Below, piece after piece: positions 6,705-19,596 of a stretch of DNA of 20,563 nt. The notes beneath the pieces are model-generated. The model had not been told where the DNA came from. It saw only the letters and a list, made by a program, of their open reading frames with translations, and did not search any database. The DNA lies in assembly GCA_051382305.1 (NCBI GenBank), contig JBBCAV010000165.1:1-20563 (forward strand), read 5' to 3'. This DNA is from Bdellovibrionota bacterium FG-2 (lineage in GTDB: Bacteria; Bdellovibrionota; UBA1018). A program made the position numbers and the translations under genes. Numbering within the stretch: position 1 is the first letter of the stretch; each line of letters starts with the position of its first letter.

Positions 6705-6780
6705 GGATCGCTAGCTCAGATGGTAGAGCAGCTGACTCTTAATCAGCGGGTCGGCGGTTCGATCCCGCCGCGATCCACCA
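6705..6780 (+). tRNA. tRNA-Lys (anticodon CTT)
   Basis: 76-nt cloverleaf: acceptor GGATCGC/GCGATCC, D-arm GCTCAGATGGTAGAGC, anticodon arm GCTGA-CTCTTAA-TCAGC, T-arm GGCGG-TTCGATC-CCGCC, encoded CCA. Confidence 0.98.
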
Positions 6781-6784
6781 ATAA
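6736..6784 (+). repeat. attL core: 49-bp direct repeat (anticodon loop to 3' end of tRNA plus 4 nt)
   Basis: Identical to 19548-19596. Confidence 0.95.
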
Positions 6785-6834
6785 ATTCATATGAATTCGC
6801 TGATTTAGATAACCCACCCTAAAACTCAAGATGA

Positions 6835-6856
6835 TTTGTGGCCATTTTTGTGGCCA
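6835..6856 (+). repeat. Tandem TTTGTGGCCA x2, putative integrase arm-type sites (left end)
   Basis: Copies at 6835-6844 and 6847-6856. The same doublet recurs at 19424-19444. Confidence 0.75.
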
Positions 6857-6877
6857 CGGAAACAGTGTTGGACTTGG

Positions 6878-6937
6878 TTCTGCGTGTTTTTCCAAAAATA
6901 CTGCAGAACAGAGTTAGCCTTGCTTGCCTCATAACAC
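6878..6937 (+). promoter_or_regulatory. Operator/promoter upstream of the integrase: TTCTGC-N19-GCAGAAC-N13-CTTGC-N3-ATA
   Basis: The same motif with identical spacing occurs at 8056-8111. Confidence 0.6.
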
Positions 6938-6942
6938 CCCCT

Positions 6943-8049
6943 ATGGCACGGCCAATTCGATTTCGCGACAAATGGAGAATCCGCTGGTTTGATGAGCACG
7001 GCGTCCGTCAGAGTGAGGTATACGCCCTTCGCCAAGACGCCCAATTTGCCCTACTTAGACACGAAGGAAGGGCTGAAGAGGTAAGACGGGGGCTACGCCC
7101 TGCCATGACACTCAACAAGACCTTTGCCGAGCTTTGCGACTACTATTTGGCCTATAAAAGCGTCCTAAAACGGCGCAAGCGCGACGATGAAAGCTTGATC
7201 CGGGTTCACCTGCGGCCGTTTTTTGGCTCCCTAAAACTTTCCGAAGTGTCAGACAAGGTGGACGAGTTCAAGTCCCTGCGAATCCACTATCACCCCTGCT
7301 CACTCAGCCACCAACTCACCCTCCTGATCTCCATGTTACGAGTCGCGCATGAAAGACGGTGGCTTTTGGAAATGCCACACATCAAAAAACCGCGAGTTCG
7401 AGTTTTTGATAAAGATTTTCATTACCTCAAGACTGACGATGAAATTCGGCGCTTTCTCTTTGCTGCGCAATCGGAAGGAGATGATGTATTCGCCCTTTAC
7501 GCGCTTGCTGTTTACACGGGATTACGCCCAGGAGAACAGGCCGGACTTAAGAAAGACGATATTCAATTGGAAAGCCGCAGGATCACCGTCCAAAACAGCT
7601 ATGAAGGTCCAACGAAAAATGGCGAAGTCCGATATGTTCCGGTTCTCGACCCCCTGCTTCCGATGCTGAGGAAATGGTTGCTTCAAAGCCCCGGCCCTTA
7701 CCTCTTCCCGACTAAAACAGGAACCATGCTTGAAGAAAAGGCGAGGATTTTCGACGAAACTTTCCGGCGTGTCTTAGAAAAAGCCAATTTTCAAAAGGGC
7801 GAAAAGCGCGGAAAAATGCGCAATTATATCCGCTATTACGATTTACGCCACACCTTTGCCTCGACTTGGATGAGAAACGGAGGGGATATTTTCAAACTCT
7901 CCAAGATTTTGGGCCACAAGTCGGTTCAGATGACCATGAGGTACGCACATTTGGCACCGGATGCGTATTCAAGTGATTATGGTCGCCTCGGCACCTGTGC
8001 ACCAAGCGGTGAGCTTGCGCCCGTTCTTTCGATCCAATCTCACGCGTAA
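6943..8049 (+). CDS. int: Tyrosine recombinase / phage integrase
   Basis: N-terminal arm-binding-like KWRIRWFDEHG; catalytic TGLRPGE, PTKNG, YDLRHTFAS, LGH, TMRYAH; adjacent to attL. Start placed at ATG 6943 rather than GTG 6838, which lies in the arm repeats. Confidence 0.95.
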   Translation: MARPIRFRDKWRIRWFDEHGVRQSEVYALRQDAQFALLRHEGRAEEVRRGLRPAMTLNKTFAELCDYYLAYKSVLKRRKRDDESLIRVHLRPFFGSLKLSEVSDKVDEFKSLRIHYHPCSLSHQLTLLISMLRVAHERRWLLEMPHIKKPRVRVFDKDFHYLKTDDEIRRFLFAAQSEGDDVFALYALAVYTGLRPGEQAGLKKDDIQLESRRITVQNSYEGPTKNGEVRYVPVLDPLLPMLRKWLLQSPGPYLFPTKTGTMLEEKARIFDETFRRVLEKANFQKGEKRGKMRNYIRYYDLRHTFASTWMRNGGDIFKLSKILGHKSVQMTMRYAHLAPDAYSSDYGRLGTCAPSGELAPVLSIQSHA

Positions 8050-8055
8050 ATATTC

Positions 8056-8115
8056 TTCTGCAGATTTTTGATTTTTCTTTGCAGAACGCTCCGGCTCGGA
8101 CTTGCGCGATACATT
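8056..8115 (+). promoter_or_regulatory. Operator/promoter upstream of the xis-primase operon
   Basis: TTCTGC-N19-GCAGAAC-N13-CTTGC-N3-ATA, with a -10-like TACATT at 8110-8115. Confidence 0.6.
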
Positions 8116-17263: not shown

Positions 17264-18392
17264 ACTGCTAACAGCTCAATTTCAAGATCAGGAAATTGCG
17301 GATGTGCTTGTCGAGTATGATGGACCACGCATTTACTCATTCTACACTCCTAGCAACAAGGGGTATTATCTCGCATATAACGTGGAGCAAACAGATCAAC
17401 TATCTGGATGGATCTATGTTTCGATTAATAGTTTTCGCCTCTACAGCTTATTGTCCAAGGAAATCTCGATTCGAGACTTCATACTGAAGTCAGAAGCCTG
17501 CTATGAAGTTACTGTAAGTCCAAATAATCAAATTGAGCAGTTGGCGATCGGATGCGACCAAACCAAGCTTCCTGCAGCAGGCGTAATGCTGAAAGCCGAT
17601 TATGACTTTCTTTCGTTCTCCCTTAGCGGCCCTAAAATTTCGCCCTTTTCAATTTCTGAGAGCGATTTCACTAATATTTTGACCACCATCTGTTCGGGCA
17701 CAATAAAAGCGATGAAGACGTTGAAATCGTTTTTACCCGGAAAATATCAAGATCCGTCTAAACAGATATTTGGAACCCCTCTGTGTGCTCCAGGCAGCTT
17801 GAAAATGCTCGTCAAGGTTGCAAGCGATAGGGATCTTCTTAGGGATACACTTCAAATTTCCTCACACAAAGAAAGTGCCGCCTTAGAGGCTCAATACGGG
17901 CTACAGGCCACACAAATTGCTGAGATCAAGAATAATTTCTACTCAATTGCTCCCCCCTTAAGAGCAAGGGGAAGTGTGGTATACGACACCGTAACCATCG
18001 GGTCCAGCTTGTTGAACGCAAACGATGGTGCCATCGTGCTTAGTCAAGATCACAAAAGAAAATATTTGGATTTTACTAAATCTAGTCAGTCGACGGATGA
18101 TTTAATTATCATTCAAGGCAAGGTAATACGCGCTGCGCGAGATCGTTGTTCATTCACCATTCATGACGCGCAAAGTAACCTGGCAAATCCTATTGACGTC
18201 GAGTGCATGATCGACCCAGAGGATGAGGACCTAATCAATAATCTGACAACGCTCGACGATAAATTGAGAGACTGCGAAACTCCTCAAGACTTAGTATCAA
18301 TGATTCTAACTCTGGGGCTTAAACTGAAAGTAAGTGGCGTCTCAAAGGCGAGCAATTCTCTTCAATTGGCAATAGCTCGCCTAATTGAATAG
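17253..18392 (+). CDS. Hypothetical protein with DUF6575-like N-terminal domain
   Basis: IADVLVEYDGPRIYS...YYLAY...WIYVSINSFRLYSLLSKEISIRDFI matches my recollection of DUF6575; APGSLKMLV mid-domain; possible OB-like C-terminus. Confidence 0.65.
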   Translation: MSTELLTAQFQDQEIADVLVEYDGPRIYSFYTPSNKGYYLAYNVEQTDQLSGWIYVSINSFRLYSLLSKEISIRDFILKSEACYEVTVSPNNQIEQLAIGCDQTKLPAAGVMLKADYDFLSFSLSGPKISPFSISESDFTNILTTICSGTIKAMKTLKSFLPGKYQDPSKQIFGTPLCAPGSLKMLVKVASDRDLLRDTLQISSHKESAALEAQYGLQATQIAEIKNNFYSIAPPLRARGSVVYDTVTIGSSLLNANDGAIVLSQDHKRKYLDFTKSSQSTDDLIIIQGKVIRAARDRCSFTIHDAQSNLANPIDVECMIDPEDEDLINNLTTLDDKLRDCETPQDLVSMILTLGLKLKVSGVSKASNSLQLAIARLIE

Positions 18393-18510
18393 CTACGGCA
18401 CTCACTCACTGGACTGATCTCATGGCCAATCCGAACCAAGGAAGGAGCGGCTACAAACAGGTTACTCTTTATCGAAACTCAGTCGCCAAAAGTTTCACAA
18501 AATTTAAAAA

Positions 18511-19422
18511 TCATTTGTCTCTAATGCGGGTCAAGACCAACCTTGGCAGACTTACACATTTTGATCCCTGATGATCATCCTCGGGGTCCGGCGCCCCCGA
18601 CGTCCCGGCACTCTCGTCATCATCGAGGGAGGGAAAAGCGTTCGGAGCTGCGCCTAAGTCATCGGCGAAGGAATATGCCTTTTTAGAATCGAGGTGAAAA
18701 ACGTTCAGAAGGGTTTCAACTATCTGATGGTAGGGCAGGTCATTGATGCCTGGGATGATCATGCCGGTATCGCTGTACCGGAACCGATAGGTGAGATGGT
18801 CAAATCCGTCGCCCTTTCGGCTATCGTTTGCAGCTCTGTATCCAATCCCAAGCAATTCACCTAAAGCACGGTCGGCGATCGTGGCGGGGCCAGTGATCGC
18901 ATTCTTTCCACCCTTCTTGCTGGTGGGAAGTTTCGTTCCAACCGAAATATCCTTTGGAGCTTTGACGAGATATTTCCCAATGGTGTCGTCATTGAACGGG
19001 CATCTATCGCCCACAAACAATGGCGCTAGGTAGCCCTTCATCATGGAAATAATCAGTGGGCGAGACTCGTCAACTGATAGCTCGCCGGAAACAACACGCT
19101 CATAAATACCCTGAAGCTCGGGATGGGCGTGCTTTGCAATAATCGTGGCCTCGTTACTTTCGTCCCATTTGTTGAACTTGGAGATTGCGCCTATTACCTC
19201 GCGCAGCAGTCTATTCCTACGATTGAGTCTTGCGAAATCCCTCTCTGATAGTTCCCCGGAAATCTCCGTTTCCCACCCATAATGAGAAACTATAAAGACA
19301 AGTTCTCTGATAATTTGCCAAGCGTCATCGCGCGATACCCGATCCCCTCGGGTGTCGTAAGGAATTCGCTTGCTCGGATTCTCGATCGCGGCTTCAGACT
19401 TCTTCTTTGAGGTGTACTTCAT
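18511..19422 (-). CDS. Hypothetical protein (possible internal HTH)
   Basis: ~303-aa open frame filling the right end of the element; GPATIADRALGELLGIGYRAA is weakly HTH-like. Start uncertain (19422 or 19434). Confidence 0.65.
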   Translation of the reverse strand: MKYTSKKKSEAAIENPSKRIPYDTRGDRVSRDDAWQIIRELVFIVSHYGWETEISGELSERDFARLNRRNRLLREVIGAISKFNKWDESNEATIIAKHAHPELQGIYERVVSGELSVDESRPLIISMMKGYLAPLFVGDRCPFNDDTIGKYLVKAPKDISVGTKLPTSKKGGKNAITGPATIADRALGELLGIGYRAANDSRKGDGFDHLTYRFRYSDTGMIIPGINDLPYHQIVETLLNVFHLDSKKAYSFADDLGAAPNAFPSLDDDESAGTSGAPDPEDDHQGSKCVSLPRLVLTRIRDK

Positions 19423-19423
19423 G

Positions 19424-19444
19424 TTTGTGGCCATTTTGTGGCCA
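19424..19444 (+). repeat. Tandem TTTGTGGCCA x2, putative integrase arm-type sites (right end)
   Basis: Copies at 19424-19433 and 19435-19444, in the same orientation as 6835-6856. Confidence 0.75.
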
Positions 19445-19475
19445 CAGAACCACAAGACCGGCAAATCTGGCAAGC

Positions 19476-19503
19476 TTGACAAGTTCCCAAACCCAGGTAT
19501 ATT
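19476..19503 (+). promoter_or_regulatory. Outward-facing sigma70-like promoter just inside attR
   Basis: TTGACA-N16-TATATT, 44 nt before the att core. Confidence 0.55.
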
Positions 19504-19547
19504 CGAGCCCGAAAGGACTGAAAGGCCTGCAAGAACAAAGGGTTGGC

Positions 19548-19596
19548 CTCTTAATCAGCGGGTCGGCGGTTCGATCCCGCCGCGATCCACCAATAA
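19548..19596 (+). repeat. attR core: duplicated 3' half of tRNA-Lys
   Basis: Identical to 6736-6784; lacks the 5' acceptor strand and D-arm. Confidence 0.95.

Follow-up and report, generated by a model that had tools for sequence, protein, structure and literature searches.

The main difference of the Gram-negative phage-inducible chromosomal islands (PICIs) is described as lying in the regulatory region, where PMC6092414 places an AlpA activator and no clear master repressor. For the PICMIs (phage-inducible chromosomal minimalist islands), int, alpA and prim are given as the sole required genes, with a defence gene carried in addition and packaging genes absent (PMC10803314). The marine virion-encapsidated integrative mobilizable elements (VEIMEs) of PMC9618062 are capsid-less and integrase-bearing, often with primase/helicase, AlpA and Abi-like genes, and the same paper puts known satellites at roughly a third of their helpers' size. 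A further class, the 'Type C PICI' of SatelliteFinder, was set aside as ambiguous by its authors (PMC10085698). Here we describe a 12.8-kb element, referred to as the island, on contig JBBCAV010000165.1 of Bdellovibrionota bacterium FG-2 (assembly GCA_051382305.1); the whole stretch of 20,563 nucleotides that was analysed is called the window. Judged from its gene content, the island is very probably an intact-looking integrative element that probably replicates itself, and the reading that we prefer, at a probability of about one half, is that of a helper-dependent phage satellite.

Integration into a tRNA-Lys gene

The island is bounded by the only long direct repeat of the window, whose two copies are spaced by 12,812 bp (Table 1). 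From the anticodon loop of tRNA-Lys(CTT), the repeat extends to 4 nt beyond the 3' end of the tRNA, the 3' 45 nt of which lie within the left copy. ARAGORN finds this to be the sole tRNA of the window, and a scan of the window against Rfam returned the tRNA and no other non-coding RNA. A perfect repeat of 49 nt cannot have arisen by chance in 20.5 kb. In addition, the right copy is directly followed by a hairpin with a 13-bp stem and a T-run (19601-19631), as expected of the displaced original terminator of the tRNA gene. Since the repeat lies in the tRNA and the terminator hairpin stands after its right copy, the insertion into the 3' half of this gene has real borders. An earlier interpretation of this DNA, hereafter the sequence-only reading, had claimed 49-bp perfect attachment (att) repeats 12,812 bp apart in tRNA-Lys, and the repeat search, ARAGORN and Rfam all agree with it. 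On this sequence evidence, the window contains a 12.8-kb integrative element in the 3' half of tRNA-Lys(CTT), with the tRNA restored by the element's own copy of its last 45 nt. With many tRNA-targeting integrases, too, the anticodon loop is where the repeat begins.

Just inside both borders lie tandem pairs of the 10-mer TTTGTGGCCA. The window contains four exact copies of this sequence, which share one strand and form two pairs, confined to the ends of the island; with one mismatch allowed there are seven matches, against a mean of 1.62 in shuffled sequences. With the ends joined through the core, 104 nt and 51 nt would separate it from the pairs, giving a candidate attP of about 245 bp. Arm-type sites on both arms of attP are the classic layout of tyrosine integrases, and the pairs may thus represent integrase arm-type sites, a role inferred from their placement. 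They could equally be shared operators, because each pair is directly upstream of an outermost gene (int on one side, a 323-aa orphan on the other). Between the right-hand pair and attR, a promoter-like sequence (TTGACA-16-TATATT, 19476-19503, a match to consensus only) is directed outward over attR, and would run into int once the element is circular.

For the identification of genes, the 17 open reading frames (ORFs) of the island were compared with Pfam and PHROGs, and NCBIfam and PADLOC were also used. The integrase, the Xis/AlpA-type helix-turn-helix (HTH) protein and the PrimPol-VapE replicase form one co-directional block on the forward strand, as the sequence-only reading had stated, and each has strong family matches. 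The int ORF opens at GTG 6838, with ATG 6943 as the likely start, and encodes motifs of the RHR-Y type as judged by eye. The Xis/AlpA protein matches HTH_17, with Phage_AlpA itself (PF05930) unmatched, and the stop codon of its gene overlaps the ATG of the replicase gene by 8 nt. The Walker-type motif of the replicase appears intact by eye. Downstream of the replicase is a gap of 196 nt, which contains an inverted repeat with 93% complementarity. The putative origin of replication (ori) that the sequence-only reading placed in this region is thus present in the form of one 15-nt inverted repeat, but without iterons.

Relatives of the replicase and of DUF5681 in tailed phages

Database relatives of the replicase numbered 821 at E<=1e-10, the best being 45-55% identical, among them P0002-P0005 at 52-55%. 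Contig statistics were drawn from the 119 relatives listed besides the window's own: in 53 of these the longest contig is 36.7-49.1 kb (median 41.6 kb), with 40 contigs falling between 40 and 46 kb, a sharp peak, which suggests that these are complete genomes belonging to a single phage group. A replicase profile scan of one genome per species (GTDB representatives) yielded 80 loci, among which a single one encodes a close relative of the replicase, at 50% identity. This locus, L003, is a contig of 40,976 bp (JALHRC010000012.1) that was examined over positions 1-14483 (14.5 kb), and its gene order is an SNF2 helicase gene on the reverse strand, a Cro-like gene, PrimPol-VapE, an HNH gene, small ORFs, a T4-type TerL gene and a Mu-type portal gene. 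By this gene content, L003 is a tailed-phage genome; it was binned in a metagenome-assembled genome (MAG) of Candidatus Paceibacterota, a binning that says little on the host of the phage.

An all-against-all comparison of the island and L003 identified the replicase and the DUF5681 protein as the only two genes in common. For the other 79 loci, the VapE domain alone is common with the island, with distant integrases or resolvases in a few. At the DNA level, megablast found no relative: plasmids searched with the window and phages searched with the island gave the tRNA match only. In a Nannocystis sp. MAG (locus L024, 7989-11874), an SNF2 helicase gene on the reverse strand, a small ORF and a full-length PrimPol-VapE gene (34% identity) stand in the same order as in L003; the locus may represent a Myxococcota prophage that belongs broadly to the same group.

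The DUF5681 gene was correctly recognized by the sequence-only reading on the strand opposite to the core genes, and its product scores above the gathering threshold of PF18932. The N-terminal motif of the island protein, YEVG-GKPP...F-PGQSGN, is common to 16 relatives, and in the Atlas the protein falls among DUF5681 clusters that are 71-88% viral. A structural search of BFVD gave DUF5681 proteins of uncultured tailed phages as the best neighbours, all matches being DUF5681 or uncharacterised proteins. A profile built from four DUF5681 proteins and run over the 16,206 ORFs of all loci recovered the homologue in L003 (9340-9825), which BLASTP aligns with the island protein over the full length at 29% identity (E 2e-17). 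Fifteen further DUF5681 relatives were found by profile search, and the five nearest the island type include the L003 protein (P0127) and P0129; the contig of P0129 and that of the replicase relative P0043 are equal in length, at 44,481 bp. P0128 and P0130 are also among the closest DUF5681 relatives, P0130 being 42% identical with a longest contig of 15.3 kb. The fold model of the island protein reached a pLDDT (predicted local distance difference test) of 55 from the single sequence, and a moderate 71.7 with 17 sequences.

Searched by tblastn against 50,697 phage records, the island DUF5681 protein had no match at E<=0.01, and six plasmid records were matched. Two of these plasmids, both alphaproteobacterial, were inspected (L001 7599-9381 and L002 8367-9734); in each, a true PF18932 gene follows a DNA methyltransferase gene, with no terL nearby. 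A true PF18932 protein from a Bradyrhizobium plasmid, used as query, matched only one phage record. On the Bradyrhizobium plasmid, two PF18932 proteins are encoded in tandem, followed by a large serine recombinase. Taken together, DUF5681 represents a phage-associated protein family of unknown function, and the copy in the island is the best lead to an interaction with a helper.

Identification of the DUF5681 protein as a small terminase was considered and rejected, the best matches being at E 0.29 in a sequence search of the PDB and E 0.44 in a Foldseek search of the PDB, with the L003 gene not adjacent to TerL. A second line of argument for such an identity was dropped. The protein gp88 of Salmonella phage STGO-35-1 has been called DUF5681 (PMC8954984). 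This protein (L084 2437-2856) and its relatives are found in 302 phage records and are encoded directly before terL in all five phages inspected, and in Burkholderia phage vB_E159 a protein of this type is annotated as terminase small subunit. However, these proteins are not evidence here, because none of the five matches PF18932 and BLASTP to the island protein gives E 3.4. The STGO-35-1-type family is probably a TerS family that has gone unrecognised and been mislabelled as DUF5681. The small ORF upstream of the L003 DUF5681 gene, where a ribbon-helix-helix (RHH) homologue had been sought, proved to encode a CxxC zinc-finger-like protein instead.

Packaged satellite, resident island or prophage remnant

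Capsid, portal, terminase, tail, lysis, relaxase and conjugation families match none of the 17 ORFs (Pfam, PHROGs, NCBIfam), and the absence of structural genes noted in the sequence-only reading thus holds for both Pfam and PHROGs. Given the lack of virion genes and the presence of replicase and DUF5681 homologues in tailed phages of about 37-49 kb, the island is most likely a capsid-less satellite of such phages. The proposed cycle would begin with recombination of the 49-bp cores by Int and the Xis/AlpA protein, releasing a circle of 12,812 bp with an attP flanked on both sides by paired TTTGTGGCCA. The PrimPol-VapE protein would replicate the circle, and the small serine recombinase may resolve multimers. 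In the central inferred step, the element would spread as a capsid-less satellite, or hitcher, of tailed phages of about three times its size, and the DUF5681 protein is the best candidate for coupling to the helper, via packaging or late-gene control. The host, in turn, may benefit from a PD-T4-10-like abortive-infection pair and from a secreted or envelope operon encoding a PEGA protein and a lipoprotein.

Several observations weigh against a satellite. Families of terS, rpp, ppi, sid, psu and capsid-morphogenesis genes are matched by none of the 17 ORFs in Pfam or PHROGs. PICIs have an ori beside pri-rep in which short iterons enclose an AT-rich stretch, and the repeat search of the gap after the primase gene found neither iterons nor tandem repeats. 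The 80 loci yielded no related element with this gene order, and therefore no comparative evidence of mobility. In searches of the PDB, the DUF5681 protein has no likeness in sequence or fold to solved small terminases, and in L003 its gene lies about 1.5 kb upstream of TerL, with two genes (374 and 109 aa) intervening. Finally, a replicase in common with phages would also be expected of a plasmid-like or decayed element. As the main rival reading, it is conceivable, though doubtful, that the island is a genomic or defence island that is not packaged at all, but excises with its own integrase, perhaps replicates briefly, moves if at all via conjugative mobilisation, transformation or generalised transduction, and is kept by its cargo. 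In favour of such an island, no packaging or interference gene was recognised in the ORFs, and the right half is mostly cargo. Plasmids commonly carry a resolvase and an RHH protein, and ParG and NikA-like families match the first RHH protein marginally (E 0.03). On the other hand, no relaxase, coupling protein or conjugation family is found in the 17 ORFs, and two genes are common with a tailed-phage family, of which DUF5681 is mostly viral and has no role in integration or replication. The size of the island, moreover, is close to one third of that of the ~42-kb phage family.

Descent from a prophage of the same ~42-kb family, through deletion of the structural and lysis genes and a later gain of unrelated cargo, appears quite improbable. 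The homology of the replicase and DUF5681 protein to L003 genes is consistent with such a remnant, as are the IS66 and ISKra4 transposase fragments in the flanks, which mark a rearranged region. However, the 49-nt att cores are perfect, int, xis and the replicase gene are intact with strong matches, the gaps between ORFs are short, and remains of capsid, portal, terminase or tail genes were not detected. In addition, L003 has an SNF2 helicase gene and a Cro-like gene where the island has int and xis, and identities of 50% and 29% are too low for a recent deletion derivative of an L003-type phage. Hardly credible is the case in which the repeat is no element border, being a duplicated tRNA fragment or an assembly artefact with ordinary chromosome between the copies, as the integrase gene is a direct neighbour of the tRNA, the anticodon loop is where the repeat starts, paired arm-type-like sites stand inside both ends, a native terminator follows the right copy, and the gene content is wholly of the mobile-element type. 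Nothing beyond the general possibility speaks for that case; the window appears to be one single contig of 20,563 bp. A helper-dependent satellite is preferred because the island has a satellite-type core, no other transfer machinery, two phage-shared genes and defence cargo. Of the complete phage satellite announced by the sequence-only reading, a complete-looking integrative element with a satellite-type core and no virion genes is retained, but satellite status is plausible only, with no packaging or hijack gene recognised. A more specific form of the satellite reading, which we regard as rather unlikely, makes the island the first recognised member of a satellite family on uncultured ~42-kb tailed phages, in which DUF5681, copied from the helper, would redirect packaging or switch on late genes, and concatemers of about three units would be packaged; three times 12,812 is 38.4 kb, or 92% of the 41.6-kb median.

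Accessory genes and flanking sequence

The features of the island are collected in Table 1. The serine resolvase named in the sequence-only reading is confirmed by its PF00239 match. Its likely start is ATG 11111, behind a promoter-like site (TTGACA-17-TATAGT, window positions 11076-11113) found by promoter scan, the -10 element of which ends 7 nt before that ATG; this spacing suggests a leaderless or near-leaderless resolvase transcript. Of the two RHH genes proposed, the one divergent from the resolvase gene is supported by RHH_1, but the one upstream of the DUF5681 gene falls in no Pfam family. The plasmid-like resolvase/RHH module is therefore real as a set of genes, with no demonstrated role. 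A search for an invertible segment on which the serine recombinase might act was abandoned, the best inverted repeat (11164-11184 and 13068-13088, 81% complementary) lying within two coding regions and being no better than 16 other pairs.

Table 1. Features of the island and its insertion site (window positions; E values and bit scores as obtained in the family searches)
Feature	Position	Strand	Evidence or remark
tRNA-Lys(CTT), integration target	6705..6780	+	ARAGORN; Rfam RF00005 66.7 bits
attL	6736..6789		49 nt perfect (6736-6784), 54 nt with 1 mismatch; repeat search, sequence
Tandem pair of exact TTTGTGGCCA, 12 nt apart	6835..6856 (6835/6847)	+	Just 5' of likely int start
Tyrosine integrase	6838..8049	+	PF00589 E 1.3e-27; phrog_1 integrase E 1e-56
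Xis/AlpA-type HTH_17 protein, likely start 8152	8068..8370	+	PF12728 E 1.2e-10, 41.9 bits; TIGR01764 excisionase family E 4e-10, 39.8 bits; phrog_66
PrimPol + VapE (D5-type helicase) replicase, 758 aa	8363..10639	+	PF09250 E 2e-16; PF05272 E 5e-74; phrog_256 E 2e-100
15-nt inverted repeat (10699-10713/10797-10811), 83-nt spacer	10699..10811		Weak candidate ori or res site
RHH (CopG-type) protein, divergent from resolvase	10836..11033	-	PF01402 (RHH_1) 24.1 bits, cut-off 20.5
Small serine recombinase (resolvase/invertase, C-terminal HTH)	11048..11752	+	PF00239 E 1.2e-41; phrog_125 DNA invertase E 2e-53
XRE/Cro-C1-type HTH regulator, likely start 11884	11737..12267	+	PF01381 E 5e-8; PHROG repressor families E 1e-10
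184-aa ORF	12299..12853	+	No family match
Secreted protein with 3 PEGA domains; cargo	12900..14753	+	PF08308 E 5e-31, 3 stretches; signal peptide by eye
Putative lipoprotein; cargo	14741..15712	+	Lipobox-like FIGC by eye; no family at E<=0.01
DUF5681 protein	15750..16190	-	PF18932 34.2 bits, cut-off 27.5, residues 12-102
68-aa ORF upstream of DUF5681, same strand	16373..16579	-	RHH-like by eye; no Pfam match
PD-T4-10A-like putative antitoxin, 137 aa	16850..17263	+	PADLOC PD-T4-10_A E 2.7e-3 (weak)
PD-T4-10B-like/DUF6575 putative toxin, 379 aa	17253..18392	+	PADLOC PD-T4-10_B E 3e-7; PF20215 29.3 bits, cut-off 26.6
323-aa orphan, likely start 19422	18511..19482	-	Last gene before attR
Right-hand tandem pair of exact TTTGTGGCCA, 11 nt apart	19424..19444 (19424/19435)	+	104 nt inside attR; Tandem Repeats Finder (TRF) row
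attR, copy of tRNA 3' part	19548..19601		Followed by terminator-like hairpin 19601-19631

The right half of the island begins with three genes, for the 184-aa protein, the PEGA protein and the lipoprotein, that look like one envelope-protein operon. The PEGA protein has a weak match to the LIC10124-family lipoprotein. An antisense ORF (12350-13000) over the 184-aa ORF runs into the following gene and is therefore the less likely one.

In E. coli, PD-T4-10 has been validated by experiment as an abortive-infection system of the toxin-antitoxin type, with two overlapping ORFs of which A is the antitoxin and B the toxin (PMC9519451). The pair in the island resembles that system in having overlapping ORFs (by 11 nt) of similar sizes, the small one first and the large one second, and in being predicted to bind. 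It differs in that the match of the B protein is confined to residues 11-96 (N-terminal 86 aa), so that likeness extends over only the N-terminal ~90-100 residues, and in that the match of the A protein is marginal. A model of the A-B complex scored 0.77 against 0.42 for the best of three controls, with contacts agreeing by at least 92% between runs and a partner pLDDT of at least 81, and the modelled interface sits on the N-terminal domain of the DUF6575 protein; 51 of 78 solved complexes attained that mark, as did 2 of 108 mismatched pairs. The model supports an interacting pair, whose toxicity and defence function are putative. The GC content over 17200-18600, which covers the pair, is 0.43-0.45 versus about 0.50 elsewhere, in keeping with a cassette that was acquired separately.

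The last gene before attR encodes an orphan without family or Atlas match, for which four relatives besides itself were found among 1.84 billion representatives. Beyond attR, a gene with a SocA/Panacea domain of the antitoxin type (19706-20260, PF13274 E 5e-13) is followed by a fragment of an ISKra4-family transposase (20291-20563), and a fragment of an IS66 transposase is present at the far left end of the window (2-667). The neighbourhood of tRNA-Lys may thus be a repeatedly used insertion hot spot with remnants of older elements. A weak match to a myxosortase-type protease was also seen in the flank of the island.

Gene layout and relationship to described elements

The layout upstream of the VapE-primase gene was scanned in 68 of the 80 loci, the remaining 12 having been dropped for less than 4 kb of sequence upstream of the primase ORF or for want of a clear ORF. 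From each locus, the scan took one small ORF and, out of the 6 kb upstream, the nearest ORF with 280 aa or more (101 proteins in all); it is crude, its counts of integrases and HTH_17/AlpA ORFs being lower bounds. A tyrosine integrase is the nearest large ORF in at least 11 of the 68 loci, co-directional in at least seven and opposite in at least four, and an HTH_17/AlpA ORF lies directly before the primase in at least two. The architecture of the island had been regarded as atypical in the sequence-only reading for its lack of a divergent repressor pair beside int. That pair, however, belongs to the layout of the Gram-positive Staphylococcus aureus pathogenicity islands (SaPIs) and PICIs. Given the precedent of Gram-negative PICIs and PICMIs and the co-directional integrases in at least seven of the 68 loci, the layout is recurrent rather than atypical. 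New beyond the sequence-only reading are the attP candidate, the XRE regulator, the PEGA/lipoprotein genes, the PD-T4-10-like pair and the phage link.

Directly before the VapE gene, 17 of the loci, among L004-L036 and L053 and mostly from Pseudomonas, have a zinc-finger ORF of the dksA/traR type. Among the large upstream ORFs of those loci are SIR2-like, reverse-transcriptase, AbiTii, C-5 methylase and S24-repressor genes, and the region between integrase and replicase looks like a hot spot for defence genes.

Should the island prove a true satellite, one more helper-satellite pair would be known, from an uncultured lineage, and DUF5681 would be indicated as a new hijack or packaging factor. 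Should the more specific reading of a satellite family on ~42-kb phages be true, it would provide a first function for DUF5681 and a helper-satellite pair outside the model lineages. Through its cargo, the list of hitcher genes gains a toxin-antitoxin pair distantly like PD-T4-10, as well as a secreted PEGA/lipoprotein operon that is unexplained. If, instead, the element is only an integrative island, it is one of thousands of int-AlpA-primase clusters left unclassified by satellite finders, and its value is that of a worked example for that class.

Among described elements, the Gram-negative PICIs (EcCICFT073, Fillol-Salom et al. 2018, PMC6092414) and the Type C PICIs (PMC10085698) resemble the island in having int at one end, an AlpA/Xis-type HTH protein and a primase-replicase, with no divergent master-repressor pair; further points of likeness are the specific att site, the length of about 10-15 kb, the lack of capsid genes and the accessory cargo. 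In contrast to Gram-negative PICIs, the island has no recognised terS, rpp or capsid-morphogenesis gene and no iteron ori, its regulator belongs to HTH_17 (PF12728) rather than Phage_AlpA (PF05930), and its replicase is a PrimPol-VapE fusion. With three of the five core components (PMC10085698), the island would be at best of Type C.

The PICMIs of Vibrionaceae (PMC10803314) share with the island co-located int, alpA and prim genes, defence cargo, and a lack of recognisable packaging or capsid-remodelling genes. They are packaged as concatemers by a larger helper. PICMIs are much smaller, with about six genes, lie beside fis and have primases of the DUF3987/DUF5906 type; the island, at 12.8 kb in tRNA-Lys, has a resolvase, an XRE regulator, DUF5681 and more cargo, and no fis is present in the window. 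P4-like satellites likewise combine an integrase, an AlpA/Vis-type protein and a primase-helicase (alpha), and at 10-12 kb and about one third of the helper's size, with defence cargo in a hot spot, they are comparable with the island; they differ in layout, and no psu-delta-sid operon or epsilon was detected in the 17 ORFs (Pfam/PHROGs). Capsid-forming PICIs (cfPICIs) are set apart by capsid, portal, protease, head-tail connector and terL genes, for which the island has no matches in Pfam or PHROGs.

In the case of the VEIMEs, likeness extends to the integrase, the absence of capsid genes, the primase/helicase, AlpA, the excisionase and, sometimes, Abi-like cargo, and some VEIMEs have terS in common with co-occurring phages (PMC9618062). 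VEIMEs are defined, however, by their recovery from virions as concatemers, whereas the island is known as a stretch of DNA sequence. From integrative mobilizable elements (IMEs), the island differs in that its ORFs contain no relaxase family (Pfam, NCBIfam). Thus, while it fits no named family, the element works like the int-AlpA-primase, 'Type C PICI-like' class with defence cargo.

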